Source: Leptolyngbyaceae cyanobacterium (GTDB lineage Bacteria > Cyanobacteriota > Cyanobacteriia > Phormidesmidales > Phormidesmidaceae). From it: DNA of 64,000 bases. The stretch spans positions 320,001 to 384,000 of the forward strand of contig CBDHHL010000056.1 in the NCBI GenBank assembly GCA_965263355.1, read 5' to 3'. Made by a program: the position numbers and the translations under genes. How positions within the stretch are numbered: position 1 is the first letter of the stretch; each line of letters opens with the position of its first letter. Of the stretch, positions 3,273-30,358 are shown one piece after another. Below the pieces are notes generated by a model. It ran no database searches. It saw nothing but the letters and a program-made list of their open reading frames with translations, and was not told the DNA's origin.

Positions 3273-3741
3273 AACGGGTATCAGCACAAAGCGAGACGAT
3301 TTCCCAAGGGAAAAATTCGGAATTCAGTCTTAGTTTGGATTTCCCGGCTTAAGTTAGATAACCTATCAACCCATCAGTAATTTCTGAGAATCCTCAACGT
3401 AATAATAAAAACCAATATACGTAATTTGAATTTTATTGATATTACATAATGATTCTGGGGAAAACAAGATTTCAGGAGGAGTCAATCCACTCACCATGTT
3501 GTTGCTGATTAAATCTTTTCATGCCTACAACTGTAGTCTTTCCGTAGAGGAGGCAACCGGTTAAACTTTGGGCATGGTTCGGAAAATGAATTTGTCTGTT
3601 ATGACTGCTATCAGAGCTTAACAGCCTACATCTTAATCGGTAACACTCATATGTTTATTATTCTGTTAACTGTGAAGATAATCTTCTCTCCGCAGCACAG
3701 AACACGATACTACAGCTTAAACTGGATGGAGAATAACTAGT

Positions 3742-5454
3742 ATGGCCTTAGACTACTTTGCGCCAGGGGTCTACGTCGAAGAGGTAGACCGAGGTAGTCG
3801 CCCAATTGAGGGCGTCAGCATGAGCGTTGCCGGATTTATCGGTTTCACCGAAGACGTACGAGGAGATGCTGAACTATTTGAACCCATGATGATTACTAAT
3901 TGGGCTCAATACTTAGAGTTTTTTGGCAAATCAGGCTCCGATGGATTTACCGATTTTGGGGCCTATCTCCCCTTTGCTGTGCAAGGTTGGTTTTTAAATG
4001 GTGGTGGTCGCTGTTGGGTAGTCAGTGTTGGCACTAAGCTACCGGGTTCGCCCAAACCTGCTGCTTCTGAAAATGCCACCAAACTGATTACCTCCAGTGG
4101 AAAACCTTCTCTTTCCTTCTATCTAAAGGCATCTGAATCTGAAGAAGAGGGCACCTTAGCGCTGCCATCCAGTGCTGGCCGATTAACGGTCAGTGTTATT
4201 GATGGAGCACCAAAGCCGTTGCCAGAGGATGCCGATGAGGATGCGGAAACCCCCATCAATAACGGTGAATATTTCACAGTGGTGGTCAGAAATGGAGATG
4301 AGGTTCTAGAACAGTATGATCACCTAACCATGAATCCAGAGGTGTTGTCTGAGGTAGCAGACTACGCCGTCACAATGTTAGAAGCCTCTGAATATGTGGT
4401 AATTGAAAATATCTCACAGTCTGGTCAGGCCCTCTCTCGTCGTCCTGCAAACGGTTCCTATGAGATTGCACCACCTCCCTATGTTGGTGAACCCGATCGA
4501 TTTAACCGCGATCTCCAAGGCAACCGCGACGATCGGACAGGCATTCAAGGTCTCTACGAGATTGACGAAGTGTCTATGATCGCCTGCCCAGACCTGTTAT
4601 TGGCCTATGAGAAAGGTCTAATCGATCTCGATCAGGTCCATGGTGTCATGGAAATGATGCTTAGCATGTGTGAGAATTCATTCCCCGGACCGGCGTATCG
4701 GATGGCAATTCTCGATCCACCGCCGGTAAAACCCGGTAAAAGCATGGACCCCGTGGAACCCAGTCGTCAGCGTCCAGCCGATGCTGCCAAATGGTTAACC
4801 ACGTTTAATCGTCGCTCTATGTTTGGGGCTACTTATTATCCTTGGATCAAAGTTGCTGACCCTCGCAACGGCGGTCGTCCCAAACTCGTTCCCCCGTCTG
4901 GCCACATGATGGGGATCTGGTGCCGTACTGATGAGTCTCGCGGTGTGTTTAAGGCCCCTGCCAACGAAACCCCTCGGGGTGTCATCGGCCTAGCGTACGA
5001 GACGAATATGCGTGAGCAAGAGTTGCTTAACCCCCTAGGCGTAAACTGTATCCGTAACTTCTCTAGCTACAACCGTGGCTTGAAGGTTTGGGGCGCTCGT
5101 ACCCTGGTTGAGCCCGACAATGTGCAGTGGCGTTACATTAGTGTACGACGACTACTGAGCTATATTGAGAAGTCCATTGAAATTGGTACTCAGTGGGTTG
5201 TCTTTGAGCCCAATGATCCTGATCTTTGGGCCAGAGTTAGCCGCACCGTCAGTAATTTTCTGGAGCGACTATGGCGGGATGGAGCCTTGTTTGGTACATC
5301 ACCTTCAGAAGCTTTCTACGTAAAATGTGATGGCGAACTAAATACCCACGACACCATTATGTTAGGTCGCTTGTATGTTGAAGTAGGTGTTTGTCCTGTA
5401 CGTCCGGCAGAATTTGTTATCTTCCGTATCAGTCAGTGGGCACCTAATCAGTAG
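3742..5454 (+). CDS. contractile tail sheath protein (Afp2/3/4-like)
   Basis: YFAPGVYVEEVDRGSRPIEGV, YYPWIKV, VPPSGH, RGVFKAPANE, LNPLGVNCIR, VWGARTL, WRYISVRR, WVVFEPN, PVRPAEFVIFRISQ. Confidence 0.97.
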   Translation: MALDYFAPGVYVEEVDRGSRPIEGVSMSVAGFIGFTEDVRGDAELFEPMMITNWAQYLEFFGKSGSDGFTDFGAYLPFAVQGWFLNGGGRCWVVSVGTKLPGSPKPAASENATKLITSSGKPSLSFYLKASESEEEGTLALPSSAGRLTVSVIDGAPKPLPEDADEDAETPINNGEYFTVVVRNGDEVLEQYDHLTMNPEVLSEVADYAVTMLEASEYVVIENISQSGQALSRRPANGSYEIAPPPYVGEPDRFNRDLQGNRDDRTGIQGLYEIDEVSMIACPDLLLAYEKGLIDLDQVHGVMEMMLSMCENSFPGPAYRMAILDPPPVKPGKSMDPVEPSRQRPADAAKWLTTFNRRSMFGATYYPWIKVADPRNGGRPKLVPPSGHMMGIWCRTDESRGVFKAPANETPRGVIGLAYETNMREQELLNPLGVNCIRNFSSYNRGLKVWGARTLVEPDNVQWRYISVRRLLSYIEKSIEIGTQWVVFEPNDPDLWARVSRTVSNFLERLWRDGALFGTSPSEAFYVKCDGELNTHDTIMLGRLYVEVGVCPVRPAEFVIFRISQWAPNQ

Positions 5455-5478
5455 AGGCGTTCTGTGGAACGCCTCTAC
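5451..5478. repeat. GTAG-type REP-like perfect hairpin overlapping the sheath stop codon
   Basis: GTAGAGGCGTTC-TGTG-GAACGCCTCTAC, 12-bp perfect stem. Confidence 0.75.
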
Positions 5479-5481
5479 GTA

Positions 5482-5574
5482 ATCCCCTCCTCGGAGGGGT
5501 GCCTGAAAGGCGGGGTGGGCTCGACTGCTAGCGCTAACGGCTAACCCACCCCGGAGCCCCTCCCAGGAGGGGAT
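5482..5574. repeat. cyanobacterial CCCCTCC..GGAGGGG palindromic dispersed repeat
   Basis: ATCCCCTCCTCGGAGGGG...CGGGGTGGG...CCCACCCCG...CCCCTCCCAGGAGGGGAT, nested inverted repeats. Confidence 0.7.
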
Positions 5575-5658
5575 GAGTTTTGGTCTACGTTTCTGGAATT
5601 CCTCTCAAGAGGAGAAGATTTTTGGTCTACGTTTTTAGAATTTTAAGGAGATGACGCG

Positions 5659-6156
5659 ATGGCTGATCTAATTAAGCCTATTGCCCCGAGTAGTTTTTAC
5701 CTGGAATTTGCCGGCGTGTGTGAAGGAGAACAGTCTGTTTTTAAAAGTGTTAATATTCCTGATTATGCGCCTAAAGTTCAGGGTGGACAACAGGCTATTG
5801 GCACCACCAAGGGTGGCAAAACTATGTGGCAAGTAAACTCAGCCGGTTTTGAAGGCCTGTTTAGCTTTGACTGTATCTGCATTGCTAGTGGCGATGGTGA
5901 CAGTACTAGCAAAAAACTCTATGAATGGTTTGAAAATTGTTTGCCAGCTTCAAATGGTGGCAAAAGCAGCTGGGGTGACAACAAAAAAGAAGGTAGCATC
6001 ACAGCCTACGACACCGATGGCAATGAGATTGCCAAGTGGCAATTTGTTGAAGCCTGGCCGTCCAAGTATAAGTGTGCCGACCTCGATGTAACAGCAGATG
6101 CTTACATTGAAGAGACATACACCATTACCTGCGAAAAGTTTAATCGCACCATGTAG
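5659..6156 (+). CDS. tail tube protein (T4 gp19/Afp1-like), paralogue 1
   Basis: FYLEF..., LYEWF, KKEGSITAYDTDGNEIAKWQFVEAWPSKY, EETYTITCEKFNR; RBS AAGGAG; immediately follows the sheath. Confidence 0.88.
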   Translation: MADLIKPIAPSSFYLEFAGVCEGEQSVFKSVNIPDYAPKVQGGQQAIGTTKGGKTMWQVNSAGFEGLFSFDCICIASGDGDSTSKKLYEWFENCLPASNGGKSSWGDNKKEGSITAYDTDGNEIAKWQFVEAWPSKYKCADLDVTADAYIEETYTITCEKFNRTM

Positions 6157-6201
6157 TTTAACCCTTAGTTCAGTTAAGAGAACAATCAAGAGAACATAGC
6201 C

Positions 6202-6684
6202 ATGGTTCAATATTTAACCAATTCAAAATTCTACTTCGAAATTGATGGAGTGACAGGGCTATCCGTCAAAACCTGCACTGGTCCTGAGATTGAGCTAGAG
6301 GTGGCTGGTGGAGATGCAGCCATTGGTGTGACTAAAAATGCCATTACTCAAACCCAATCAACCATTGGTGGCGTGAAATATAACAGCACCATTACCCTTA
6401 CCTATGTGGCTGGTAATGAATCTGATCACCAAAAGTTGTCAGAATGGTATAACGATTGTCATCCAGACACCTTTTCAGGTGGTGGTTCTAAGGCAATGGA
6501 TAGCCGCAAAACGGGTTCCTTAGTGATCTATAATCCCAATGGTAGTGAGGCCATGCGCTATAACTTTATTGACCTGTTTCCAGGGACTAAAAAACAGATT
6601 GGTAGCTTGGCCGTTGACAGTGGTGGCAACCTTGCTGAAGATACGCTAGAGCTGTTTTTCACCCAGGTTGTGCGAGCAACCTAA
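6202..6684 (+). CDS. tail tube protein (gp19-like), paralogue 2
   Basis: LTNSKFYFEIDG, RKTGSLVIYNPNGSEAMRYNF. Confidence 0.85.
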   Translation: MVQYLTNSKFYFEIDGVTGLSVKTCTGPEIELEVAGGDAAIGVTKNAITQTQSTIGGVKYNSTITLTYVAGNESDHQKLSEWYNDCHPDTFSGGGSKAMDSRKTGSLVIYNPNGSEAMRYNFIDLFPGTKKQIGSLAVDSGGNLAEDTLELFFTQVVRAT

Positions 6685-6692
6685 CCTAAGCC

Positions 6693-7220
6693 ATGATATT
6701 TCCTGAGATTTTAACCAAGGCTCGGTTTTATCTGGAACTCAGGTTGGATGGCAGTATTGATCTGATCGATGGTTACTTCATGGAGTGCTCTGGCTTCCAG
6801 CGATCGCAAGAGGTGATTGAGGTCTGTGAAGTAACCCCCCAGGTTTGGGGGCAGCAGGGACGTAGCCACGGCCACATTATCCGTTCTAAGATTCCGGGCA
6901 ACAGCTCTTTTACCAACATTACCCTCAAGCGAGGGTTAACGGTCTCCACGGCCTTTTGGGATTGGATGGATACCATTGGTGAAGGTAACTGGGCTGATCA
7001 GCGACGTAATGGCGCTCTGTGTATTTATGGACAATCGGGATTAGAACAGTTTCGATTTGAGTTCGCTGGAGCTTGGCCCGTTAGCTATAAGATTTCTGAT
7101 CTAGATGTGAAAGGGGCTGAGCATAATGTGGAAGAAGTTGAGATTGCAGTGGAATCTCTGAAGCGGGTTTCTGACAGCTGGATGCTTGGGGCGGCAGCGC
7201 TGGGCATGGCAATGAGTTAG
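6693..7220 (+). CDS. tail tube protein (gp19-like), paralogue 3
   Basis: FMECSG, NITLKRGL, FWDW, RRNG, FEFAGAWPVSY, VEEVEIAVE. Confidence 0.9.
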   Translation: MIFPEILTKARFYLELRLDGSIDLIDGYFMECSGFQRSQEVIEVCEVTPQVWGQQGRSHGHIIRSKIPGNSSFTNITLKRGLTVSTAFWDWMDTIGEGNWADQRRNGALCIYGQSGLEQFRFEFAGAWPVSYKISDLDVKGAEHNVEEVEIAVESLKRVSDSWMLGAAALGMAMS

Positions 7221-7242
7221 TTGCTTTTTGATAAATAGAACA

Positions 7243-7677
7243 ATGACGGCTATTCAACTCAGTAATAATCTAGGCTTAGCACCGCCAAAAGTGACGCCTT
7301 CTATTCAACCCATCGATCCATCTTTGCCTAAATCTGTTGCAGATGTGGGTCCCCGCTTTGACCAGCAGGTTAATGCACCGTCTAGCCTGCAAACTCAGTT
7401 TGTTTTTGAGTTGCCGATAGGCTATCTAGACAATGCTGGGCAGCTCCATCGTCGAGGTGTGATGAGACTTGCACGCACCGCTGATGAGATTGAGCCGATG
7501 TCAGATATTCGGGTGCAGGCAAATGTTGCTTATGCCACAGTCATTATTCTGTCTCGGGTGATCTTGTCCCTAGGGAAGCTGCCTGATGTGAGTCCCATTG
7601 TGATTGAAGGGCTGTTTGCGGGGGACCTAAACTATCTACAAAACTTTTACAGAAAGATTAATGGTTTGACGGAGTAG
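7243..7677 (+). CDS. phage-tail assembly chaperone-like protein
   Basis: FELPIGYLDNAGQLHRRGVMRLA..DEI, ILSRVI..LG, IEGLFAGDLNYLQNFYRKIN; family common in eCIS loci; ATG 7243 preferred over TTG 7228. Confidence 0.8.
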   Translation: MTAIQLSNNLGLAPPKVTPSIQPIDPSLPKSVADVGPRFDQQVNAPSSLQTQFVFELPIGYLDNAGQLHRRGVMRLARTADEIEPMSDIRVQANVAYATVIILSRVILSLGKLPDVSPIVIEGLFAGDLNYLQNFYRKINGLTE

Positions 7678-7683
7678 ACACTT

Positions 7684-7947
7684 ATGACACAGTTGGATCC
7701 GTTAGCTGGGGCTGAGCAGGCGACGTTTTTGCCGCCCAGTGGAGTTGTTTCGAATCCAGCAGGATTTGTTGCTCCTGCAATTATGCAGAGTAATCATACG
7801 TTGGAGGTCAAGAAAATGATGGCTCAGATGGCTATGAAACTAGCCCATAATCCAACGGCAATGCAGCAGTTTTGCGATCGCATCCACCAACTGCTCCGTG
7901 ACGATATTCAAGCACGGCAAGAGCGTTCTTGGGGGAGACGTCACTAG
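7684..7947 (+). CDS. small CIS-locus hypothetical protein
   Basis: In operon; stop overlaps the next start (TAGTG); C-terminal helix resembles the C-terminus of the giant protein. Confidence 0.7.
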   Translation: MTQLDPLAGAEQATFLPPSGVVSNPAGFVAPAIMQSNHTLEVKKMMAQMAMKLAHNPTAMQQFCDRIHQLLRDDIQARQERSWGRRH

Positions 7948-8543
7948 TGTTTAGTGAACTATTAGCGGCTAATCAGCTAGCCACATCTGTTGGCGGCGAT
8001 CTATTTGGTGACAGTCGGTCGGCAGCATCCAATGCGGCTGACTATGTCACCAGTAACCGGTTTTATGTTGAGATTGAGAGTCAAATCACCGCCTGCTTTA
8101 CTGAATGTGGTGGGTTAGGGGTAACCATCAAAAAAGAAACCGTGCCAGAGGGTGGTCTCAACGACCAGCAACGGATTTTATTAGGAACACCTGAATTTTC
8201 TGACGTTACCCTTAAACGGGGTATTAGCGGTAATCAAGTGTTTTGGGATTGGCTAAATGCGTTGTTTCAACCGCGCACATCAGGCACTGGTCTCAAACAA
8301 CATCGCCGCAACATTAACATTTTAATTTTCAACCAGGCTGGGCAAACCCAACAGTGTTGGACGTTGATTGGAGCTGTTCCCGTAGGGTGGCAGGCCCCTT
8401 CTCTACAGGCAGACGGTAATGCAGTTGCCATTGAAGAACTAACATTGGCTTACGAAGGCTTAAATGTGACCTTTGGCAGTGGCGGCGGTGGTGCCACCAT
8501 GCTGACAGGGCGTTCTGATACTGGCTACTTTGAGAGTAAGTAA
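7947..8543 (+). CDS. tail tube/tube-initiator protein (gp19/Afp5-like), paralogue 4
   Basis: NRFYVEIE, FTECGGL, EGGLND, VTLKRGI, RRNINILIFNQAG, WTLIGAVPVGW, AVAIEELTLAYEGL; likely GTG start at 7947. Confidence 0.9.
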   Translation: MFSELLAANQLATSVGGDLFGDSRSAASNAADYVTSNRFYVEIESQITACFTECGGLGVTIKKETVPEGGLNDQQRILLGTPEFSDVTLKRGISGNQVFWDWLNALFQPRTSGTGLKQHRRNINILIFNQAGQTQQCWTLIGAVPVGWQAPSLQADGNAVAIEELTLAYEGLNVTFGSGGGGATMLTGRSDTGYFESK

Positions 8544-8546: not shown

Positions 8547-11500
8547 ATGACAAAACAGCTGGGGCATACGTCTCCATTAGGGGCAGTTCACAACCTGGGC
8601 CATGGGGTACAGCACCGGTCGTTGGGGCCGTCATCATTAGCGATCTTAGATCTCAAAACGTTTTATCCCCATGGGTTTCCTAACGTTGCCTCTGAAAGCA
8701 CAAGTGCTTCAGAGAGTACAGTCGCTCGTAGTATAGATACGTCAGCCTCTTCTCAACAAGCTTCAACACCCAGCGTTAAGGAGTCTAAGTCTGCAACTGG
8801 TTCTGCAGGTCTAGGCTCATTTTTTCGTCGCAGTCTGCAGCGTTACTTTTCGCCAGGGTCAAGAGACCGTTCTGATGCTATCTCCCCTGCCTCCACTCAT
8901 CAGCCTGTTTCACAACAAGCCTCTCCAAACACAACATCCATACCAAACTTACAAGCAACTCCTGAAATAACGGTAACTACTAGTGACTCAATAGTAACTC
9001 CCACATCAGCAAGTGTTTCAACAGATAGTAATTCCTCTCATCAAGAGGTAAAACCCCCAACATCAGCTCAGCAACCGCCTACTGGGCTAAATTCAATCGA
9101 TATTAACCAATCTATTCAGAGTCTGCAAGAACAGTCTCCGATTCAACGAACTTCGGATAACTCAACCGGCTTAGGGTCCCATGACTCCAGTCAAACTGAT
9201 ATAGCGCAACAGTCTGCACGTAATCTGGCAGCCCCCCCCTTAAATACTCCCAATGCTATTCCGTCTACCTCTAATCAGGCTGACCTAATTCAAAGAAGAA
9301 TTGAGCCATCTCAATTATCAGACTCAAACTCTGCTGCAAGCTTAGGGAAGCCTACAGAAAGTATTCAGATATCGGCTAATAAAAGTCTTTCTGACACTGG
9401 ATCTATACAACATTCGAGCGATATTCAATCAGTTGTCAATTCGACTGCAGCAGTGCAACGGACAACTGATTCACTTCAGTCTCTTGAATCGTTGGCTGAA
9501 TCACCTCAAGTAGATCTCGTTCAGACTAACACGAATGAGCCGACAAACAATATTCATCCCGTTCCCAGCTCAGAAGAATCAGTTCAACGGGCAGCAGACT
9601 CTACTGATTTAACTTCATCAGTTCCCCATGAATCACATCAGATAAACACGGCTCAAGCTAATCAATTTAGTCAAAAAAATAGACCTCAGCCATCGGCGGA
9701 TTCTCTTTCTGAAACCGAGGGCATTCAACAATCGAGTAATAGTCAAACCGCTTTTAACTCAGGAGATATCGTTCAAAGAGCAGCTGAGTTACCCCAATCA
9801 ACAAGCTTATCTAGTGACGTAGGCCAACCACAAACACCTCAGTCTGTTGAACTTGATCAAACACATAGAGCACCGACTTCTAATAGAGAAAACGTCGTTC
9901 AAAGGACGGCTGAGTTAACCCAACCAACCAACACATCTAATAAGGTAGGCCAAACCGAAACGCCTCAGTCTGTTGAATTTTCTCAAATAGATACAATTCA
10001 GGTATCGACTAATCCCTTTTCTGACACTGAGACGCCTCAAAATTTGGGCAATGTTCAACCAATTACTTACTCAGTAGACACGGTTCAACGAGTTTCTGAT
10101 GATATATCTGAAAGAATTGAGGCAAATAGCCCATCCTACCCTGACACGACATCAACAACGAATACTCACGGCACCCTTCAACGAGTAACAAATGTCACAG
10201 ATGACTCACAAATCATCGAACCTGATAATGCGCCGTCTGTTCAACAATTACCCTCTGAACTAGCGACAACCGATATTATCGATACTGATGTCTCAGGCCC
10301 GAGTCAATCTCCGTTTAGCCCGCCTGAGTCCATTCAACGGGTAACCGAGGTCCCTCAGCGAGCAAACTCAGGTTCTGACGAAGTTAGGTCAGCCAATACA
10401 GCTCAACTATTACCTGATGGTTCTAACGCGAATAAGCCTACAAACAATATCCACCCCATTCCCAGCTCAGGAGAAGCAGTTCAACGGGCAGCAGACTTTA
10501 CTGATTTAACCCCGTCAATTTCCCATGAAGCACATCAGATAGGCACGACTCAGAGCAATCAATTTAGTCAAACAAATAGACCTCAGCCATCAGCCAATTC
10601 TTTTTCTGAAACTGAGGGTATTCAACAATCGAGTGAGGGTGAAACTGCTTTTAACTCAGAAAATATTGTTCAAAGAACAGCTGAGGTACCCCAATCAACA
10701 AACAGGTCTAATCAAGTAAGCGAAACAGAAACACCTCAGGCTATTGAATTTACTCAAAAAAACACACCTCAACAATCCGCCAATTCCCTTGCTAAAACTG
10801 AGGGCATTCAAAAGTCAAGTGAGGTTCAAACTGCCTTTGACCCAGGCAAAATTATTCAGAGGACAGCTGAGGTACCCCAGTCAACGAGTATATCTAATAA
10901 AGTAGGCCAGCCAGAAACACCTCAGGCTGTTGACTTTGCTCAAACAGATATGCCTCAGGTATCGACTAATCCGTTTTTTGAAAGTGAGATTCTTCAAAAA
11001 TCGAACAATGATCAACCGATTACTCACTCAGTAGACGCGGTTCAACGAGTTGCTGATATATCTGGAAAAATTGAGGCCAATAGCACATCTTCCCCTGACA
11101 CGACATCAACAACAAATACTCAAAGCACTCTTCAACGAGTAACAGATGTCATAGGCAGTTCACAAATCATCACCCCTGATAATGCGTCGTCAGTTCAACA
11201 ATTCCCCTCCGAATTAGCCACAACCGATATTCCCCGTACTGATATCTCAGCCCCAAGTCAATCTTCATTTAGCCCGGCTGAGTCCATTCAACGGGTAACC
11301 GAAGTCTCGCAGCTATCAAACTCAGGTTCTGACGAATCCAGGGCAGCTAATACAGCTCAATTATTACCTGATTTTTCTACCGCGAATGAGCCTACAACCA
11401 ATCTTCAACCCATTTCCAGCTCAGAAGAATCAGTTCAACGGACAACTTACTTTACTGACTTAACGTCATCAGTGCCCTATGGAGCATATCAGATAGACAC

Positions 11501-14500
11501 AGCTCAGGCTAGTCAATTTAGTCAAACAAATATACCTCAGTCATCAGCAAATTCTTTTTCTGAACCTGAGGATATTCAACAACCGAGTGATGGTCAAACC
11601 GTTTTTAACTCAGGAGAAATTATTCAAAGGACGGCTGAATCAACTCAGTCAACACCTGAGGATATTCAACAATCGAGTGATGGTCAAACCGTTTTCAACT
11701 CAGGAGAAATTATTCAAAGGACGGCTGAATTAACCCAGTCAACAAGTACGTCTAATGAAATAGGCCAAACAGACACACCTCAGGCTAATCAATTTGCTCA
11801 AACAAATACAGCTCAGCGATCCGCTAACTCCCGTGCCAAAACTGAAGGTATTCAACAATCGCGTGATGGTCAAACAACGTCTAACGTAGAAAACGTCGTT
11901 CAAAGGACAGCTGAGTTAACCCAGCTAACAAACACGTCTAATGAAATAGGCCACACAGACACACCTCAATTATCGACTAATCCTTTTTCTGAAAGTAAGC
12001 CCCTTCAAAATCCTAACAATGTTCAGCCGATTACTCACTCAATAGACGCGGTTCAACGAGTACCCGATACTCACAGCACTCTCCAACGAGTAACGGATGT
12101 CACAGATAATCCAAAAATTATTGAACCTGATAATGCGCCGTCAGTTCAACAATTATCGTCCGAATTAGCTACAACCGATATTACCCATACTGATGTCTTA
12201 GCCCCGAGTCAATTTAGTCAAACAACTATACCTCAGCCATCAGCAAATTCTCTTTCCAAAACTGAGGAAATTCAAAAGTCAAGCGATGGTCAAACCGATT
12301 TTAACTCAGGAGATATCGTTCAAAGGACGGTTGAATTAACCCAATCAACAAGCACGTTTAATGAAGTAAACCAACCAGAACTACTTCAAGCTAGTCAATT
12401 TGCTCAAACAAATATAGTTCAGCAATCCGCCAACTCTCTTGCTAAAACTGAGAATATTCAAAAATCGAGTGGGGTTCAAACGACGTCTAACGTAGAAAAC
12501 GCCGTTCAAAGGATAGCTGAGTTACCCCAGCCAACAAACACGTCTAACGCAGTAGATAAAACTGAAACGCCTCAGTCTGTTGAATTTGATCTCACACACA
12601 CAGCTCAATCATTAACTAATTCTGTTTCTGAAAGTGGACCTCTTCAAAAATCGAACAATGTTCAACCGATTACTCACTCAGTAAACACGGTTCAACGAGT
12701 TGCTAATGTGTCTGAAGTAATTGAAGCTGATAGTCCCTCCTACGCTGACGCGACATCAACAACGAATACTCATAGTCCGCTTCAACGAGTAACGGATGTC
12801 ACAGATAATCCACAACCCATAGAATCCGATAATGCTCTGTCAGCTCAACAATTATCCTCCGACTTAACCACAACTGATATTCCCCACACTCAAACTGATA
12901 CGCTAATCTCCCGCACTTCGAATCAACCAATCATTACTCATCCGTCCCATGATAATGTCTTAAACGCTTCGTTAACCGATGTCTCATTTCCGAGTCAGTC
13001 TCCGTTTAACCTATCTGAGTCAATTCAACGTGACGTCGACGCCTCTCAGCTATCAAACTCAGGTTCTGACGAATCTAGGGCAGCTAAGACAGTTCAACCA
13101 TTATCTGATTTTTCTACCGCGAATGAGCCCACAACCGATATTCAATCCGTTTTTAGCTCAGGGGAATCAGTTCAACGGGCAACAGACTTTACTGATTTAA
13201 CTCCGTCAATTTCTCATGAGTCTTATCAGATAGGCACGACTCAGACTAATCAATTTAGTCAAACAACTATACCTCAGCCATCAGAAAATTCTCTTTCTGG
13301 AACTAAGAGCATTCAAAAGTCGATTGACGATCAAACCGCTTTTAACTCAGGAGATATCGTTCAAAGGATAGCTGAGTTACCCCAATCAACGAGCACATCT
13401 AATAAAGTAAGCCAAATAGACGCACCTCAGTCTGTTGACTTTACTCAAACAAATACAACTCCGCTCCCCGTTAGCTCCCCTGCTAAAACTAAGAAAATTC
13501 AGAAGTCAAGTGAGGTTCAAACTGCCCCTGACTCAGGTGAAATCATTCAGAGGACAGCTGAGTTACCCCAGCCAACGAGCACATCTAATAGAGTAGGTCA
13601 ACCAGAAACGCCTCAGTCTGCTGAATTTACTCAAACACACATACCTCAGTTATCGACTAATCCTGTTTCTGAGAGTGAAACTCTTCAAAGTTCGAACAAT
13701 GTTCAACCGATTACTCACTCAAGAGACAGGGTTCAACGAGTCACTGATGTGTCTGGAGCCGTTAAGGCGGATAGCCCATCTTACACTGACACGACATCAA
13801 CAACGAATACTCATAGCACGCTTCAACGAGTAACAGATGTCACAGATAATCCACAAATTATTGAATCCGATAACGCTCCGCCAGAACAACAATTACCTTC
13901 TAACTCAGCCACAAACGATATTCCCCGTACTGATGTCTTAGTCCCGAATCAAACGCCATTTAAACCACCTGAGTCAATTCAACGGGTAACTGCAACCTCT
14001 CAGCTATCAAACTCAGGTTCTGACGAATTTGGGGCAGCTAATGCCGCTCAACTATCGCCTGATGGTCCTACCGAAGAAGCAGTGCAACGGGTAGCAAACT
14101 TAACTGACTTAGTTTCACCAGTTTCCTATGAGTCTTATCAAATAGGCACGACTCAGGCTAATCAATTTACTCAAACAAACATACCTCAGCCATCAGCGAA
14201 TTCTCTTTCTAAAGCTGAGGATATTCAAAAGTCGAGTCAAGGGCAAGTTTCCTCTACCTCAGGAGAAATCGTGCAAAGGATGGCTGAGTCCATCCAGTCA
14301 ACAAATACGTCTGATGAATTAGACCAAACAGAACTACCTCAGATTCCTGAATCGATACAAACACACACAACTCAGTTATCGACTAACTCTGTTTCTGAAA
14401 GTTATCTTCAATCAGCCACTCACTCAGTAGAGATCGTTCAAAAGACAGCTGAGTTAACCCAATCAACGAATATACCCAATAAAGTAAGCCAACCAGAAAC

Positions 14501-16037
14501 GTCTCAGTCTGTTGAATTTTCCCAAACAGATATCGCAGATGAGCCACAAATCATTGAACCTGATAACCACATTCCGTCAGCTCAGCAATTACCCTCCAAA
14601 TTAGCCACAACCGATGTTCCTTATAACGATGTCTTAGTCCCAATTCAATCTCAGTTTAGCCCGACCGAGTCCATTCAATGGGTAACCGAAGCCTCTCAGC
14701 TATCGAATTCAGGTTCTGATCAATTTGGGGCAGCTAATGCCCCTCAACTATTACCTGATGGTTCTAACGCGAATGAGTCTACAAACAACATTCACCCCAT
14801 TCCCAGCGCAGACGAATCAGTTCAACGGGCAGCAGACTTTACTGATTTAACTCCGTCAATTTCTCATGAGTCCTATCAGATAGATACAACTCAGGCTAAT
14901 CAATTTAGTCAAACAAATATACCTCAGCCATCAGCGAATTCTTTTTCTGAAACTAAGATTATTCAAACATCGAGTGAGGTTCAATCCACCTTTAACCCAG
15001 TAGACATTGTTCAAAATGCTTCTAACTCAGCTGAGCTAGTTCAATCGACAGCCGAGTCAACAACATCAATCTCAATTGAGACCGATCAGCCAACTACATT
15101 AGTTTCCAACCAGCCAGATATCGTTCGGCTTAACAATGTGGCTGAGAGCGAGGCTATACAAAAATTAAGTGATAGCCAATCTGTTTCTGGCCCAACACAC
15201 TTAGCAAGACCAGTACAACGTTCATCGGATTCAACTCATACGGACATATTAGGCCTTTCCATCAGCAAACCGCTGCCGAGGGTACTCAGATCGCTAAGTG
15301 TGTTGAAACCATTACCCTCATTGCAGGGCAAGGGCTTAAAACTCGGTGAGCAAGTAGCTTCAGAATCCACCCCCTCACAACCAACCATTCAACGTCAAGA
15401 ATCCGACCACATTCCAAAAGCATGGTCTAATCTAGAATCATTAGTTGCAGGTCTAACGGGTAGCAACTCACAGAGCGTATCGACGTCTGAGAAATCCACA
15501 AGCATTGATTCAGATACTGTTACACCACCGTCAGATACCAGTTCGGTCAACATTCAACGCCAGCCTTCTGACGTTAATAATGACTCTGCACGGTTGTCAA
15601 ACAGTTCTAGCTCGACCACCCAGTCTAATTTAGAAGACTTAACTACCCATTTGCCAAACAATTCATTCGAGCATGACTCTACAACGTCACAACCGGCTCC
15701 AGAGTCCAATCATTCTCAGCAATCCACTCAACGCTCCCCTGTCTCGAAGGCACCGCCAACTCCCCAGCAAGCATCTCACACTGTCAAAGTTGCTAAACCA
15801 GCTACAGTCACAGTTCAACGCCAGGTAGCAAGCTCAGTATCCACAACAAAACCAACGATCATTCAAGCTTGTAAAGACACCTCACCTAGCACTGATTCTG
15901 CTGAGGCTGATGAACAAACAGATGACAATCATAACTATAGTCAGTATCTAGAGCTATTAGCCCAGGAAGTCTATAGCCTCTTACGACAGCGACTCTCTCT
16001 GGAACAAGAACGACGAGGGTCTAAATACCCTAGATAG
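8547..16037 (+). CDS. giant low-complexity S/T/Q/P-rich repeat protein of the CIS operon ([VIL]QR repeats)
   Basis: 2496-aa uninterrupted ORF with about 40 [VIL]QR motifs, nested internal repeats and a C-terminal helix YLELLAQEVYSLLRQRLSLEQERRG. Confidence 0.85.
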   Translation: MTKQLGHTSPLGAVHNLGHGVQHRSLGPSSLAILDLKTFYPHGFPNVASESTSASESTVARSIDTSASSQQASTPSVKESKSATGSAGLGSFFRRSLQRYFSPGSRDRSDAISPASTHQPVSQQASPNTTSIPNLQATPEITVTTSDSIVTPTSASVSTDSNSSHQEVKPPTSAQQPPTGLNSIDINQSIQSLQEQSPIQRTSDNSTGLGSHDSSQTDIAQQSARNLAAPPLNTPNAIPSTSNQADLIQRRIEPSQLSDSNSAASLGKPTESIQISANKSLSDTGSIQHSSDIQSVVNSTAAVQRTTDSLQSLESLAESPQVDLVQTNTNEPTNNIHPVPSSEESVQRAADSTDLTSSVPHESHQINTAQANQFSQKNRPQPSADSLSETEGIQQSSNSQTAFNSGDIVQRAAELPQSTSLSSDVGQPQTPQSVELDQTHRAPTSNRENVVQRTAELTQPTNTSNKVGQTETPQSVEFSQIDTIQVSTNPFSDTETPQNLGNVQPITYSVDTVQRVSDDISERIEANSPSYPDTTSTTNTHGTLQRVTNVTDDSQIIEPDNAPSVQQLPSELATTDIIDTDVSGPSQSPFSPPESIQRVTEVPQRANSGSDEVRSANTAQLLPDGSNANKPTNNIHPIPSSGEAVQRAADFTDLTPSISHEAHQIGTTQSNQFSQTNRPQPSANSFSETEGIQQSSEGETAFNSENIVQRTAEVPQSTNRSNQVSETETPQAIEFTQKNTPQQSANSLAKTEGIQKSSEVQTAFDPGKIIQRTAEVPQSTSISNKVGQPETPQAVDFAQTDMPQVSTNPFFESEILQKSNNDQPITHSVDAVQRVADISGKIEANSTSSPDTTSTTNTQSTLQRVTDVIGSSQIITPDNASSVQQFPSELATTDIPRTDISAPSQSSFSPAESIQRVTEVSQLSNSGSDESRAANTAQLLPDFSTANEPTTNLQPISSSEESVQRTTYFTDLTSSVPYGAYQIDTAQASQFSQTNIPQSSANSFSEPEDIQQPSDGQTVFNSGEIIQRTAESTQSTPEDIQQSSDGQTVFNSGEIIQRTAELTQSTSTSNEIGQTDTPQANQFAQTNTAQRSANSRAKTEGIQQSRDGQTTSNVENVVQRTAELTQLTNTSNEIGHTDTPQLSTNPFSESKPLQNPNNVQPITHSIDAVQRVPDTHSTLQRVTDVTDNPKIIEPDNAPSVQQLSSELATTDITHTDVLAPSQFSQTTIPQPSANSLSKTEEIQKSSDGQTDFNSGDIVQRTVELTQSTSTFNEVNQPELLQASQFAQTNIVQQSANSLAKTENIQKSSGVQTTSNVENAVQRIAELPQPTNTSNAVDKTETPQSVEFDLTHTAQSLTNSVSESGPLQKSNNVQPITHSVNTVQRVANVSEVIEADSPSYADATSTTNTHSPLQRVTDVTDNPQPIESDNALSAQQLSSDLTTTDIPHTQTDTLISRTSNQPIITHPSHDNVLNASLTDVSFPSQSPFNLSESIQRDVDASQLSNSGSDESRAAKTVQPLSDFSTANEPTTDIQSVFSSGESVQRATDFTDLTPSISHESYQIGTTQTNQFSQTTIPQPSENSLSGTKSIQKSIDDQTAFNSGDIVQRIAELPQSTSTSNKVSQIDAPQSVDFTQTNTTPLPVSSPAKTKKIQKSSEVQTAPDSGEIIQRTAELPQPTSTSNRVGQPETPQSAEFTQTHIPQLSTNPVSESETLQSSNNVQPITHSRDRVQRVTDVSGAVKADSPSYTDTTSTTNTHSTLQRVTDVTDNPQIIESDNAPPEQQLPSNSATNDIPRTDVLVPNQTPFKPPESIQRVTATSQLSNSGSDEFGAANAAQLSPDGPTEEAVQRVANLTDLVSPVSYESYQIGTTQANQFTQTNIPQPSANSLSKAEDIQKSSQGQVSSTSGEIVQRMAESIQSTNTSDELDQTELPQIPESIQTHTTQLSTNSVSESYLQSATHSVEIVQKTAELTQSTNIPNKVSQPETSQSVEFSQTDIADEPQIIEPDNHIPSAQQLPSKLATTDVPYNDVLVPIQSQFSPTESIQWVTEASQLSNSGSDQFGAANAPQLLPDGSNANESTNNIHPIPSADESVQRAADFTDLTPSISHESYQIDTTQANQFSQTNIPQPSANSFSETKIIQTSSEVQSTFNPVDIVQNASNSAELVQSTAESTTSISIETDQPTTLVSNQPDIVRLNNVAESEAIQKLSDSQSVSGPTHLARPVQRSSDSTHTDILGLSISKPLPRVLRSLSVLKPLPSLQGKGLKLGEQVASESTPSQPTIQRQESDHIPKAWSNLESLVAGLTGSNSQSVSTSEKSTSIDSDTVTPPSDTSSVNIQRQPSDVNNDSARLSNSSSSTTQSNLEDLTTHLPNNSFEHDSTTSQPAPESNHSQQSTQRSPVSKAPPTPQQASHTVKVAKPATVTVQRQVASSVSTTKPTIIQACKDTSPSTDSAEADEQTDDNHNYSQYLELLAQEVYSLLRQRLSLEQERRGSKYPR
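9530..15010 (+). repeat. nested intragenic repeat array (about 0.7-1.04 kb super-units built from shorter modules)
   Basis: Marker GAC(A/G)CGACATCAACAAC at 10143, 11097, 12747 and 13788; near-identical 90-bp tandem duplication at 11564 and 11654. Confidence 0.85.
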
Positions 16038-16090: not shown

Positions 16091-16576
16091 ATGAGCACAT
16101 TTGTTAAAGCTAAACTTATTGCCCAAGGAGGCGGTAGCAACATCGAGTTTATGTTTAACCCAACTGAGTTGAGTTTTAGTCGAAAGATGAATCTCAACTC
16201 CTGTGGTGGAGCCCGAACAGATGATGGTGTTCCAAAGGTTAGCTTTGGGTCACCAGAACCTTACAGTATCACCGTTGGTGGCTTGGTTTTTGACACGTAC
16301 GAAACGGGCGAGAATGTTCTCGATAAGCATATCGAATATTTTCGACAGGCCGTCGAGTTTTTAGATAGCCAAGAACGTCCACCCATGTATATCTTTACCT
16401 GGGGCAAGCAAGAATACTTACGGTGCTTTGTACAGTCACTTTCCTATAAGCTCACCATGTTTTTGCCGGATGGTACACCTGTGCGAGCAACGGTAGATAT
16501 CACCTTGCAAGAAATCGGTGAGACCAGCGGTTCGGGTAATACAGGGACGCCCAGTCGAGGAAGTAGTAGTCGATAG
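16091..16576 (+). CDS. CIS baseplate hub/tube-initiator (Afp7-like), no LysM domain
   Basis: IEFMFNPTEL, FDTYE, RPP..IFTWG, LTMFLPDGTPVRATVDITLQE. Confidence 0.88.
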   Translation: MSTFVKAKLIAQGGGSNIEFMFNPTELSFSRKMNLNSCGGARTDDGVPKVSFGSPEPYSITVGGLVFDTYETGENVLDKHIEYFRQAVEFLDSQERPPMYIFTWGKQEYLRCFVQSLSYKLTMFLPDGTPVRATVDITLQEIGETSGSGNTGTPSRGSSSR

Positions 16577-16742: not shown

Positions 16743-18752
16743 ATGGCTGCCACCAAGTTTGTCGCGACGCCTACCCTGAAGATCGACGGCAAAGCTGCCT
16801 CTAGTGAATTAATAGAGGATATTTTACAGATAGTGGTGGAAGAAAGCTTACATCTGCCAGGCATGTTTACTCTAGTAATTCAAAATGATTACTATGCTGG
16901 CGAAGAGAATCATCAAGTTTGGAAGCACGAGAAGCTATTTGAGATTGGTAAATCGATAGAAATTGGCTTCGCAGCCAGTACAACTGAGTCAGATGAGTTT
17001 GATGAAGAAAATAAAGGTAATGTGATTAAGGGTGATATCACAGCGATTGAAACTCATTTTACCAGTGAAGCCCAGGCTCCAATTATCATTCGCGGTTATG
17101 ATGCCTCCCATCGATTACACCGAGGCCGTCATAGTCGCTCATTTCAAAATAAAACTGATGCCGATATTGTTAAATCTATTGCCTCAGAGGTGGGTATTTC
17201 CATCGGTAAAGTAGATTCGACCGGTGGCCCCTATGGTTATGGAGATATTGGGGGGTCTAGTGGTTATGTGTTTCAACAAAACCAGACCAATATGGAGTTT
17301 TTGCGAGAACGAGCTGCTCGCCATGGCTTTGAACTCTTTGTTCAAGATGGCAAGCTTAACTTTCGTCAACCAACCAAAGACAGCACCCTGTCTCTAGAGT
17401 GGCTACAGGATATCCACAGCTTTCGGGTGCGGGTGAGTAGTGCCGATCAGGTGAAAAGTGTAGAGGTGCGTGGCTGGGACTATAGTCGCAAAGAGGTTAT
17501 TGCCGAAACAATTAGCAAAGCGAAACAAGTTCTGACCGATACGGATAATGGCGATGGCAGTAAGACCGTCAGTGTTTTTGACGGTAAGCCAAAAACACCG
17601 ACCCTGGTGATGGTGGACCAACCAATTTCCCAGGCGAAAGAGGCCCAAGCCATGGCACAGGCTCTTTATGACGAAGTGGGTGGCGAGTTTGTTCAAGCAG
17701 ACGCCCGCAGTGAGGGAGACCCGTCTATCCGTCCGGGACGGGTGGTGAAGCTAACGGGTATGGGTAGCTATAGCGGCAGCTACTATGTCACTGAAACTCG
17801 CCATGTATTGCATGAGCGCATCTATAGAACTGAATTTTCGGTGCGGGGACTGCGCGGGGGCGATTTACTGCAAACATTAGAGAGTAAGAATACTTTGCAG
17901 CCAGGACAAACCCTAATGGTAGGGATTGTTGCTGATAATCAAGATCCGAAAGGTTGGGGGCGGGTGCGGGTAAAACTGCCCACCTTAACGGAAGAGCACA
18001 TGAGTAATTGGGCACGGGTAGTATCCGTAGGGGCAGGACCAACCCGAGGTGTGGACTGGCTGCCTGAAATTAATGATGAAGTACTGGTGGCCTTTGAACA
18101 TGGAGATATTCATCGGCCTTATATTTTAGGTGGGGTATGGAATGGTAAGGATGCTCCACCGGAAAAAATAGAGGAGACAATCGTCAATGGCAAGGTGCGT
18201 TTGAGAACATTGAAGACTCGGTTGGGCCATACGCTGCAATTTGTGGAAGAAGACAAGGGGGATAGTAAGAAGGGGGTTTATTTAACAACCGTCGATAAGC
18301 ATCAGCTGCATCTGAATGATACTGAAAAGTATGCGGAGCTAAAGACTAAGGATGGTCATCAACTGATGTTGGATGACAAAAATAAGAAGATTGATCTAAA
18401 AACTAAGGGTGGTCATCAGATCTCGATGGATGACAGTGGGAAAAAGGTGGATATTATTTCTACTGGCAGTTTGAATGCGAAATCAGGGAAAAGCGGCAAA
18501 AGCGAGAAAATTAATATTAATGGTGGTGAGATCACGCTGACAGGGACAACAAAAATTACGCTGAAAGTGGGCAGTAGCCAAATTGTTTTGAGTAATGCCG
18601 GCGTGAATATTTCGGGAACACAGGTGAATGTGAAGGCCAATGCCACGGCAAAAATGGAAGGCGCAATGGTGGATGTAAAGGGACAGGCGACGGTAAATGT
18701 GCAGTGTTCGGGGATGACAAAAGTAGCGGGAAGCTTGTTAAAGCTAAATTAA
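16743..18752 (+). CDS. vgrG: VgrG-like spike (Afp8; gp27-gp5)
   Basis: VEESLHLPGMF, RGYDASHRLHRGR, QQNQTNMEFL, DPKGWGRVRVKLP, WARV, LPEINDEVLVAFEHGD; C-terminal beta-helix repeats. Confidence 0.93.
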   Translation: MAATKFVATPTLKIDGKAASSELIEDILQIVVEESLHLPGMFTLVIQNDYYAGEENHQVWKHEKLFEIGKSIEIGFAASTTESDEFDEENKGNVIKGDITAIETHFTSEAQAPIIIRGYDASHRLHRGRHSRSFQNKTDADIVKSIASEVGISIGKVDSTGGPYGYGDIGGSSGYVFQQNQTNMEFLRERAARHGFELFVQDGKLNFRQPTKDSTLSLEWLQDIHSFRVRVSSADQVKSVEVRGWDYSRKEVIAETISKAKQVLTDTDNGDGSKTVSVFDGKPKTPTLVMVDQPISQAKEAQAMAQALYDEVGGEFVQADARSEGDPSIRPGRVVKLTGMGSYSGSYYVTETRHVLHERIYRTEFSVRGLRGGDLLQTLESKNTLQPGQTLMVGIVADNQDPKGWGRVRVKLPTLTEEHMSNWARVVSVGAGPTRGVDWLPEINDEVLVAFEHGDIHRPYILGGVWNGKDAPPEKIEETIVNGKVRLRTLKTRLGHTLQFVEEDKGDSKKGVYLTTVDKHQLHLNDTEKYAELKTKDGHQLMLDDKNKKIDLKTKGGHQISMDDSGKKVDIISTGSLNAKSGKSGKSEKININGGEITLTGTTKITLKVGSSQIVLSNAGVNISGTQVNVKANATAKMEGAMVDVKGQATVNVQCSGMTKVAGSLLKLN

Positions 18753-18764: not shown

Positions 18765-19157
18765 ATGGGAATGCAAGTTGTCGCTGGGGCCATGCTTAAA
18801 TGTCCTTTTGGTGTTGCCCCCAGTGTCTTAAACGTTTTACCAAAAGGCCCACCCGTTATGGCATCTGGTCCCCTAGCTGCCACCATTATGGACTATGCGC
18901 CCGTCGTCAATATTCCGCCGTTTGGCATGTGTAGTTCTTTAGCAAATCCCACCGTTGCCAGTGCTACGGCGGCGGCCTTAGGGGTACTTACCCCCATGCC
19001 CTGTTTACCGGTTATTCCAGCCCCCTGGGCACCCGGTTCACCCACTGTACACATTAACAACTTTCCAGCGCTTAATAACAGTTCAAAATGTATGTGTACT
19101 TGGGGCGGTGTGATCACAATTGTTAACCCTGGTCAGTTTACGGTTCAGATTCCATAA
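18765..19157 (+). CDS. DUF4280 PAAR-like spike tip
   Basis: VVAGAMLKCPFG, NIPPFGMCSSLANP, PMPCLP..PW.PG, SKCMCTWGGVITI. Confidence 0.92.
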   Translation: MGMQVVAGAMLKCPFGVAPSVLNVLPKGPPVMASGPLAATIMDYAPVVNIPPFGMCSSLANPTVASATAAALGVLTPMPCLPVIPAPWAPGSPTVHINNFPALNNSSKCMCTWGGVITIVNPGQFTVQIP

Positions 19158-19235: not shown

Positions 19236-20039
19236 ATGACCAATGCTTTCCCAAACACTCCTCAGAAACAACTCAAGCTTCCAGGCATTTTGGGGGGATT
19301 AGGCCCTTTGGCCCATATTGAGTTTGAACAACGCTTGCTACACCATAGCTCGCGTCGGGGTGCACAGTGCGATCAGGATCATCCTAATTGGATAGTTCTC
19401 AGTGCTGCGTCAACCCCAGATCGAACTCAAAGTTTACTGAGAGAAGGACCAGACTGTGTCCCCAACTTGATACGTGGTGCGTGCCAGCTAGAGGCCATGG
19501 GAGCTGACTTCTTGATAGTGCCTTGTAACACTGCCCACGGGTTTTACCATACGGTACAGACCCAACTAGGCATTCCCTGGCTGCATATGATGGATACAAC
19601 AGCAGCTTATATTGCCCGTTATTTTCCCAATGTGCGGCAGTTGGGAGTGTTGGCAACGGATGGAACGTTGCGATCGCAACTCTACACCCCCAGTCTCGCC
19701 CAATATGGCATCTCTCCGATTTCACCCCCCTTGAAATCGCCTATTCAGCATCGCGTTATGCAAGCCATTTACTCGCCAGACTGGGGCATTAAAGCCACGG
19801 GTGCCTGGGTTTCAGACATTGCCCTGATTGAACTTATCGTCGCGTCTCGCTGGTTAGCCGCCCAAGGCGCAGAGCTGATCATCGCCGGATGTACCGAAAT
19901 ATCCATCGGGTTAACCAAACTTAGTCAGCTACCCATTAACTGGGTCGACCCCCTTGATGTCATGGCCAATCTTACCCTTGACCTTGTTTACGGTATTACT
20001 CCAGTTCAACCTGTTGTGTCAGCCAAACGCTTCCCATGA
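19236..20039 (+). CDS. aspartate/glutamate (amino acid) racemase family
   Basis: GILGGLGPLA, PDRT, catalytic VPCNTAH and AGCTEI, VLATDGT. Confidence 0.9.
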   Translation: MTNAFPNTPQKQLKLPGILGGLGPLAHIEFEQRLLHHSSRRGAQCDQDHPNWIVLSAASTPDRTQSLLREGPDCVPNLIRGACQLEAMGADFLIVPCNTAHGFYHTVQTQLGIPWLHMMDTTAAYIARYFPNVRQLGVLATDGTLRSQLYTPSLAQYGISPISPPLKSPIQHRVMQAIYSPDWGIKATGAWVSDIALIELIVASRWLAAQGAELIIAGCTEISIGLTKLSQLPINWVDPLDVMANLTLDLVYGITPVQPVVSAKRFP

Positions 20040-21139: not shown

Positions 21140-21210
21140 CCACACGCCTTTTTAGGGGGCACGGCAGTGCGCGCCTAGGATTTCATTACTTATATTCCTC
21201 TAAAGTCGTT

Positions 21211-23978: not shown

Positions 23979-24069
23979 TAGAGGTTCAGGCTAAATCGAA
24001 AATCCCCTATTAAGATGCCCGTAAGCCTCCTCAAATCAACATAATTTGCTGACGTACTTAATGGAGTGC

Positions 24070-24789: not shown

Positions 24790-24830
24790 GTGGGACTAAC
24801 TATGTCAGGATTTGCTGAAATAGCACCTAG

Positions 24831-24879
24831 GCTTGTTATACCAGCTATGGTGTGCTAATTTTTACTTGTTATGACAAGT
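24831..24879. promoter_or_regulatory. candidate GntR operators
   Basis: Palindrome ACTTGT-TATG-ACAAGT at 24864-24879 and degenerate GCTTGTTATACCAGC at 24831-24845, in the divergent intergenic region. Confidence 0.6.
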
Positions 24880-24938
24880 GCTGCAATAGGTCCGAAACTT
24901 CAGACCTTGCAGACGCTGGATCCATTAGGGTTTAAAAG

Positions 24939-25868: not shown

Positions 25869-25892
25869 CTCATCTTTCTGTAGGTAACAACA

Positions 25893-28694: not shown

Positions 28695-28743
28695 GATGTA
28701 AAACTTAGCCGAAACAATACAGAGATAGGAGCATGGGTCGCGC

Positions 28744-30288: not shown

Positions 30289-30358
30289 AACATACCTGAA
30301 TTGTGTATGGCTCAACTGTCGAAATAACTTTGATGAAATAATTCCGATGCAGATATGA

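Follow-up and report, generated by a model that had tools for sequence, protein, structure and literature searches.

A long motif-punctuated protein in a contractile injection locus

The 64,000-nucleotide stretch of Leptolyngbyaceae cyanobacterium DNA analyzed here (contig CBDHHL010000056.1, positions 320,001 to 384,000; hereafter the window) carries a block of structural genes for a contractile injection system (CIS) and, within it, an intact, stop-free forward-strand frame (8547–16037) encoding a low-complexity protein of 2,496 residues. The protein is punctuated by VQR, IQR and LQR tripeptides ([VIL]QR, here xQR) and is a candidate disordered ruler with a predicted baseplate-anchoring end helix. 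That it is a baseplate-anchored assembly component of the particle is probable; that it represents the baseplate-anchored, disordered ruler of Streptomyces-type CISs is a tentative reading, to which we give not quite an even chance.

The block opens with a divergent cap or terminator gene of the Pvc16_N type (Cis16, 1864–3141, reverse strand) and continues on the forward strand with the sheath (Cis2, 3742–5454), three gp19-like tube genes that differ from one another (5659–7220, comprising 5659–6156, 6202–6684 and 6693–7220), a 149-residue tail assembly chaperone homologue (7228–7677) and a fourth tube protein in the position of Cis5, the first tube ring (7929–8543). The chaperone homologue matches PHROG 508 with an E value of 9e-4 in the window and of 6e-3 to 7e-8 in five of five homologues; a gene of ~800 codons directly follows the chaperone gene in seven other cyanobacterial loci (L034, L038, L042, L052, L057, L060 and L069). 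Downstream of the long gene, also on the forward strand, lie the CIS_tube or Cis7 tube initiator (16091–16576), the VgrG-like hub and spike (Cis8, 16743–18752) and, as the last gene of the block, a DUF4280 PAAR-like tip (18765–19157). The earlier note on this DNA had placed the long gene between the last tube gene and the hub gene; it does lie in that block, but the initiator comes first and the hub and spike only after it.

The Cis7 relatives that are 92–95% identical come from Leptolyngbyaceae-type cyanobacteria, and the solved chain closest to the window spike is 9GTR from CIS-Sc of Streptomyces coelicolor (E 3e-51, against 3e-25 for Anabaena 7B5H). Assignment to the Anabaena tCIS type was rejected on this ground and on the absence of DUF5908 from the close relative G004, in a scan that matched three of 201 cyanobacterial genomes. 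CIS_tube, Pvc16_N and sheath, looked for as marks of a possible CIS-Sc-like (subtype IId) cluster, are all present in the block. A scan of 51 window open reading frames (ORFs) detected no CIS ATPase, DUF4157, wedge or gp25 gene; because wedge, gp25 and ATPase are not among them, the CIS cluster is likely split.

The composition of the long protein bears out its earlier description as rich in S, T, Q and P with few Trp or Cys (S 16.2%, T 11.7%, Q 10.6%, P 7.4%; two Trp, one Cys), and the estimate of about 40 hydrophobic-Q-R motifs proved accurate, with 40 xQR counted where 2,000 shuffles averaged 1.4 and never exceeded 6. Arginine directly follows glutamine at 44 of its 78 occurrences, and 10 [VIL]QK and 9 [VIL]QQ variants accompany the motif. 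The remaining window proteins examined (n = 29) together have 14 xQR where 9.9 are expected. The disorder check proposed in the earlier note places the protein on the disordered side: its charge-hydropathy value is 0.417 against a boundary of 0.435, FoldIndex is positive, and then only slightly (maximum 0.16), in 22 of 98 windows, and hydropathy over 19 residues peaks at 0.88, with no membrane-like segment, all three being simple proxies for disorder rather than a dedicated predictor. Pfam and NCBIfam scans of the whole protein returned nothing at E≤0.1, and thus no effector domain, and an ESM Atlas search matched only nameless cyanobacterial and Chloroflexi clusters. The claim that the protein lacks a recognizable folded domain stands as far as these family scans go, but it overlooked a conserved C-terminal helix.

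Residues ~330–2156 (9534–15014, forward strand) consist of rearranged copies of a super-repeat of ~318 residues, built of six units of 63, 62, 62, 30, 52 and 49 residues with one xQR in each. The copies, compared with the reference copy at residues 645–962 (10479–11432, forward strand), share ~60–90% amino acid and 74–96% nucleotide identity over matched segments; they were resolved by k-mer diagonals, a self-BLAST having returned the trivial self match only. In alignments of the copies that do not use the motif as an anchor, 49 of 50 aligned positions retain Q and 45 of 50 retain R, compared with 58% elsewhere. Synonymous and nonsynonymous changes number 35 and 6 at the QR codons (dN/dS ~0.03) and 325 and 977 at the spacer codons (dN/dS 0.58), in a comparison of all copies with one reference that is non-independent and in which tile edges count some sites twice. 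The QR codons are under purifying selection within the window protein. The earlier statement that QR is kept while the spacers drift thus holds in that QR is far better kept, but the spacers are themselves recognizable super-repeat copies. Its inference that QR is a repeatedly used short linear motif gains from this selection and from that in Streptomyces orthologue pairs, of which four of five have 0.02–0.03 nonsynonymous (pN) against 0.11–0.48 synonymous (pS) differences per site and are clear for QR, and also from recurrence of the motif in an A/P/G-rich background in another phylum; the median spacing is 61–62 residues in both cyanobacteria and Streptomyces.

The same counts bear on the proposal that only the termini matter and that the body is degenerate, idle repeat expansion. 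The window body has only ~30% alignable identity with close relatives, such low spacer identity and a wide overall length range being what favors the proposal; the excess of synonymous change at QR codons, the pN and pS values of the four Streptomyces pairs and the constancy of length within clades (below) all oppose it, and we give it next to no weight.

Conserved ends and a widespread family

Both ends of the protein are conserved. The N-terminal ~45 residues (8547–8681, forward strand) are 69–80% identical in five close relatives. A WSNLE-type motif at residues 2289–2303 (15411–15455, forward strand) recurs in 33 of 41 C-terminal regions, all cyanobacterial, where it sits 100–300 residues before the protein end. 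The amphipathic C-terminal helix spans residues 2464–2491 (15936–16019, forward strand); the last 35 residues are 89–94% identical between the window protein and its relatives and 89–100% identical in 11 of 11 pairs, and the helix codons are under selection in Streptomyces too. AlphaFold predicts the final 50 residues as a single helix with a pLDDT of 81. Judged by sequence comparison, the C-terminal helix is the invariant part of the family and xQR is not its core. Many helix-family proteins (in the series P0265–P0404) have two stretches that match the helix profile, often with one ~100 residues before the end, which suggests tandem helices.

A plug-sized paralogue of the helix, 87 residues long and devoid of xQR, is encoded at 7684–7947 on the forward strand (hhalign 93.6%; score 33, which none of 40 shuffles attained, their maximum being 12). 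Second helix copies of 46–97 residues, of which this is one, lie before cis5 in cyanobacterial and Chloroflexi clusters, namely in L006, L007, L018, L031, L035, L036, L052, L057, L067, L069, L073, L075, L076 and L078.

A predicted complex of three helices with two hub chains scored an ipSAE of 0.51, compared with 0.00 for the best of three controls; at least 58% of contacts are common to the runs and the partner pLDDT is at least 55. Of 157 solved pairs 116 attained the scoring mark, as did two of 215 mismatched pairs. At scores of 0.60 or less, however, it was reached by only 18 solved pairs and by both mismatched ones, and for that reason we take the predicted seat of the C-terminal helix on the spike hub as a weak one. 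The score may in addition reflect likeness to solved plug–spike complexes. Cis6 is described as a plug in PMC8894136; in tCIS, AlgoCIS and PVC, trimers of this protein of 50–59 residues plug the spike cavity and are needed for assembly where tested. A flexible loop of the plugs extends into the tube lumen, to which the spike cavity opens. The plug family DUF5908 (PF19265) was not detected in the window protein, and the helix profile scored only 9–12 against 120 DUF5908 sequences, which is not significant (shuffles averaged ~8, reversed profiles gave 10–11, and the three scores were reached by 1, 10 and 4 of 60 shuffles). Nor do the helix profiles match a solved plug in the PDB, in which a control plug alignment (A2) does recover the 7B5H and 7AEF plugs; PDB sequence searches with the C terminus, the 87-residue ORF and two helix profiles gave chance helices only, and one close-range query of viral contigs turned up nothing related to the helix. 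Its visual resemblance to the Pvc6 helix failed the profile controls and was dropped. The helix may work like a plug, and we do not class it as DUF5908.

The gene belongs to a wide, unannotated family of CIS core genes that, by its sequences, is real and selected. Among 80 loci chosen by Cis7 in a sampling of cyanobacteria and Chloroflexi, an ORF ending in the helix lies just upstream of cis7 in 51 by pattern and in 57 by a profile partly built from those same loci; seven more have a low-complexity ORF with a degenerate end (L043 partial), and the remainder mostly lie at contig edges or belong to split clusters. A cross-phylum helix profile collected 2,254 clusters at 50% identity (E≤0.001). 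The helix matched in 73 of 151 Streptomyces genomes, and all 20 loci fetched from those matches have the order sheath, tube, chaperone, long gene, cis5, cis7 and vgrG, the long gene being A/P/G-rich and encoding 608–1,237 residues with 7–23 xQR against 0.2–0.5 expected. Of 17 actinomycete CIS_tube loci fetched from 20 matches, five have a long xQR-helix gene and one has a DUF4157-xQR-helix gene in the slot between cis5 and cis7, the others being broken or of other types. That one (L089, 3356–5335) encodes 659 residues with a weak DUF4157 match, three xQR and a helix-like end, and may link the long-protein family to effectors of the Tme type. A literature search, mostly of open-access text and not covering figures or two-letter terms, found neither the family nor xQR described and never “QR motif” or “glutamine-arginine” alongside CIS terms.

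The canonical phage order is tube, chaperone, tape measure, initiator and hub. The long gene thus occupies the tape-measure slot in Streptomyces and the slot of the Cis6 plug in cyanobacteria and Chloroflexi; in the window it is one position downstream of the tape-measure slot, past cis5. Complete copies from the Cis7-selected loci (n = 23) range from 407 to 2,520 residues, and their QR count rises with length (Spearman 0.91, n = 23), a correlation that is not phylogenetically independent and hence was not used. Eleven of 13 close cyanobacterial copies are 1,900–2,520 residues long, with repeat periods unlike that of the window protein, and have no more than 25 of its 1,858 six-mers in common with it; Nostoc-type full-length copies (n = 29) have a coefficient of variation in length of 0.11. 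Length is held within clades while sequence turns over; approximate clade values are ~610 and ~1,200 residues for two Streptomyces clades, ~1,070 for Nostoc and ~2,100 for Leptolyngbyaceae. Some genomes hold more than one version: a second Streptomyces CIS clade has one of ~550–650 residues (L137, 7828–9693; L138, 8041–9867), which in G224 and G270 stands beside the clade of ~1,070–1,110 residues as a natural two-length pairing in one strain, and the cyanobacterial genome G005 has three CIS clusters (L104, L004 and L014) with versions of 1,288, 1,903 and 2,520 residues.

The Cis6 slot raises the possibility of a giant plug or tether, in which the helix would, like Cis6, plug or nucleate the baseplate, with an xQR tail that fills the lumen or tethers cargo and whose length follows the capacity of the tube. 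The slot is exactly that of the plug in cyanobacteria and Chloroflexi, the helix is weakly predicted to sit on the hub, its register resembles that of plug helices by eye, members as short as 141–479 residues exist, and the plugs' own loop reaches the lumen. This account leaves unexplained the retained tail assembly chaperone gene, the constancy of length within clades under full sequence turnover and the uniform length of CIS-Sc, and its DUF5908 homology is not significant; we consider it unlikely, although the strongest of the alternatives.

A motif shared with DUF4157 cargo

The xQR motif also occurs outside the family. All 24 DUF4157 proteins at the sampled loci carry it (84 occurrences against 11.7 expected, some proteins being near-duplicates), N-terminal to the peptidase motif in every one and within 60 residues after it in 13. 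Five more DUF4157 proteins, from seven loci of which two were pattern-negative, bring the count to 29 of 29, and three of the five are encoded in two genomes that have a small DUF5908 plug and lack any match to the long-protein helix. Within the family, only 28 of 71 helix-selected representatives of at least 500 residues have three or more xQR (184 in total among the 71, against 29 expected), and 67 of 72 long members, mostly from Nostoc, have none or one, with other repeats instead. Conservation of QR in syntenic homologues, a point raised in the earlier note, is found in the Streptomyces copies, where it is selected, and is nearly absent from these mostly Nostoc members. Because the motif is present in 29 of 29 DUF4157 proteins but nearly absent from Nostoc members, we regard it as a shared CIS motif and not as the core of the family. 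In two loci of G666 (L162 and L165), DUF4157 proteins carry four to five tandem acidic repeats of 20 residues in the N-terminal region, each repeat starting with xQR, and would make a compact model for mutagenesis of the motif.

For AlgoCIS, the disordered N-terminal domain of DUF4157 cargo is described as the loading sequence and the ATPase as required; for extracellular CIS (eCIS) cargo in general, 10.64898/2026.05.27.728243 assigns loading to a disordered N-terminal region and describes no shared motif in it. Since the cargo domain loads and needs the ATPase, xQR would most simply be a grip common to lumen-bound proteins, and we lean toward a role in docking or loading, in common with cargo, over one as a cut site.

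The cut site belongs to a different explanation, in which the long protein is self-loading cargo or a polyprotein that an AAA+ ATPase would thread into the tube by its xQR motifs, and that the HExxH peptidase of DUF4157 would cut at xQR into many peptides or meet as a decoy substrate. The motif does flank DUF4157 on both sides, and in the 13 proteins mentioned it lies where the variable C-terminal domain begins; DUF4157, which has an HExxH motif, has been proposed to act in loading or maturation (PMC8213781), L089 encodes a DUF4157-xQR-helix protein in the same slot, and published text presents Tme and Sle1 as tape-measure-related cargoes. The spacers, however, are nearly neutral and unshared between relatives, which would leave any peptides cut from them devoid of conserved information. 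In addition, the window protein has no effector domain, Nostoc members lack xQR, full-length Tme is reported on blots, and AlgoCIS loading is reported not to need DUF4157. This explanation thus appears improbable, more so than the plug or tether.

The remainder of the window has other contents. Past the PAAR-like gene, 19236–26897 encodes an Asp/Glu racemase, a peptidoglycan-binding solute-binding protein, a dicarboxylate symporter, a Cache-HAMP protein, a GntR regulator, a desaturase and a hydrolase, and shows no sign of a CIS link. Clustered DUF1822, sigma-like, caspase-DUF4384 and TPR-CHAT genes follow at 27567–37000, a protease-signaling module typical of filamentous cyanobacteria.

Particle length and comparison with known systems

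CIS-Sc provides the particles with which lengths can be compared. They are uniform, at 268 nm in the model and 233 nm in situ, and PMC12237407 reports no tape-measure gene, a lack also noted in PMC10066040 and PMC10286715; published lengths span 233–295 nm. The 20 loci nearest CIS-Sc by Cis5 include 17 complete long genes of 1,015–1,469 codons, one that runs off its contig, one unparsed and one broken. The broken one (L156), whose Cis5 is identical to PDB 9GTP chain a at 138 of 139 positions, holds in the slot (3584–7784, genome G318) ~1,400 codons with 22 xQR and the end helix, split by five frame breaks (near 3828, 5835, 6175, 6325 and 7242). Because at each of these points the contigs of four of four close runs have another length, the breaks are likely assembly errors; strain-specific lesions are a possible alternative. 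An off-frame ORF of ~1,400 codons there that ends in the right helix would mislead annotation. The genes annotated in this interval of S. coelicolor include sco4249, described as divergent from sco4248; from this one may infer, and no more than infer, that the sense long gene never entered the searched proteome. Two further lines were set aside: a single SCO4249 peptide from purified extended CIS-Sc cannot be assigned to the long gene, as antisense ORFs differ among nine of nine related loci, and the gene is covered by contigs from RNA libraries of two related Streptomyces runs, a kind of evidence that does not demonstrate transcription. From gene order, SCO4251 is presumably the chaperone-like gene.

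Published CIS-Sc lengths of 233–295 nm over ~1,400 residues correspond to 0.17–0.21 nm per residue, a figure that is one indirect pairing, the identity of L156 with S. coelicolor being presumptive. An alpha helix spans 0.15 nm per residue. Applied to the window protein, the figure predicts particles of roughly 420–520 nm.

Under the ruler reading, the C-terminal helix would anchor the long protein in the spike hub, as is weakly predicted, with three copies per particle. The chaperone would coat the disordered chain, and the tube would polymerize along it until the chain's length is read out, the chain thus serving as a length ruler inside the growing tube; the xQR motifs would be repeated grips for machinery that also handles DUF4157 cargo. 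10.64898/2026.05.27.728243 describes such coating of tape measures by tail assembly chaperones, and three chains would fit the 4.5-nm lumen, taking up ~63 nm of tube if compact. This tentative reading gains from the tape-measure slot, the synteny of the chaperone, the constancy of length within clades and the rough fit to CIS-Sc length.

Several observations weigh against a ruler. The window CIS is known from its genes alone, the nm-per-residue figure is the indirect pairing noted above, and only a template would give a coil a defined length; the eCIS rulers described in 10.64898/2026.05.27.728243 are alpha-helical. Two of the 80 Cis7-selected loci (L061 and L062) have cis5 abutting cis7 with no such gene between them; short members exist (141 residues in L047, 287–333 in L080 and L079, 407 in L036 and 479 in L069), as does a 1,166-residue copy in the close relative L009, from a low-coverage assembly. 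The helix lacks significant likeness to known plugs, xQR is scarce in the mostly Nostoc members and frequent in a minority of the long representatives, and the plug-sized paralogue could itself be the true plug or a partner in a mixed trimer with the long protein. Tme of S. davawensis (more than 2,000 residues, in a like slot), truncated at 2,006, reportedly goes with particles of ~200 nm. The CIS-Sc baseplate model in PMC12237407 comprises Cis1b/7/8/9/11/12 and no plug, and CIS-Sc lumens are described as mostly empty in an effector mutant without Sco4256-58. The CIS-N5 strain is complemented with sco4253-51 only, and would bear on the ruler claim if its deletion were polar on the long gene.

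The empty lumens and the CIS-Sc model without such a protein could also be accommodated by an external scaffold, in which the helix would sit on the baseplate during assembly while a multivalent, disordered tail outside the lumen gathers tube, chaperone or cargo subunits or tethers particles in the cell; multivalent short motifs ~61–62 residues apart in cyanobacteria and Streptomyces would suit it. The tape-measure slot with its chaperone gene, the constancy of length and the spike cavity that, in the published description, opens into the tube lumen argue in the other direction, and we judge the scaffold very unlikely. Returning to the ruler, that the window protein sets particle length is possible, somewhat less so than an even chance would imply. 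More doubtful still is the full account, in which CIS-Sc-like systems of Actinobacteria, Chloroflexi and Cyanobacteria would use a disordered-chain ruler fused to a spike-plugging helix, missed in model Streptomyces through frameshift errors and antisense annotation, with the xQR grip common to DUF4157 cargo as a code in the loading signal and with half-micrometer particles in the window organism.

If the ruler reading is true, the family supplies the ruler reported missing from CIS-Sc, in the right slot and in a host amenable to genetics. Machines derived from phage tails would thereby gain a new type of ruler, disordered and punctuated by motifs, and engineered particles a simple means of setting length. 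xQR is a concrete candidate motif within the disordered cargo-loading region. Even without a ruler, the xQR motif stands, as does a family of core genes, ~2,250 clusters in size, that had no annotation.

The closest parallels divide the features of the long protein among them. With the spike plugs Cis6, Alg6 and Pvc6 it shares, in the window and in most cyanobacterial and Chloroflexi loci, a gene position between cis5 and cis7, an amphipathic C-terminal helix ending in an ER dipeptide and a weakly predicted hub seat; in contrast, the long gene of Streptomyces precedes cis5, and the plugs are 50–59 residues long with an N-terminal strand, the window protein being 40–50 times longer. The N-terminal regions of DUF4157 (eCIS_core, PF13699) cargo are likewise disordered and xQR-rich (29 of 29), but in these proteins 1–11 xQR surround a peptidase-like domain, which a C-terminal domain accompanies, whereas the window protein combines 40 xQR with a conserved end helix and lacks DUF4157. 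Tme (S. davawensis) and Sle1/Sle2 (S. lividans) are also large, partly disordered and tied to baseplate or tube-initiator proteins, and the Tme gene, too, lies just upstream of baseplate genes. They differ in carrying DUF4157, coiled-coil, membrane or enzymatic domains, of which the window protein has none, and Sle1/Sle2 are encoded beyond the sheath gene, outside the long-gene slot.

The FliK and YscP rulers of flagella and type III needles are largely disordered. They set a precedent for a flexible protein that measures a tube; they are likened here by description only and belong to another machine, are secreted while measuring and have a folded switch domain. The eCIS and phage tape measures (Afp14, Alg14 and Cis14) are, like the long gene, the largest gene of their block and cluster in length by clade. 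The Streptomyces long genes share their position after tube and chaperone and before initiator and hub (20 of 20 loci), and the indirect CIS-Sc value of 0.17–0.21 nm per residue compares with 0.2156–0.229 for helical eCIS rulers (10.64898/2026.05.27.728243). No tape-measure family matched in Pfam and NCBIfam scans of whole proteins or in a PHROG search of the two termini. Known tape measures have an alpha-helical middle, whereas the body here is S/T/Q/P- or A/P/G-rich, without a helical or membrane body, and the window protein is set apart by its xQR repeats and single end helix.

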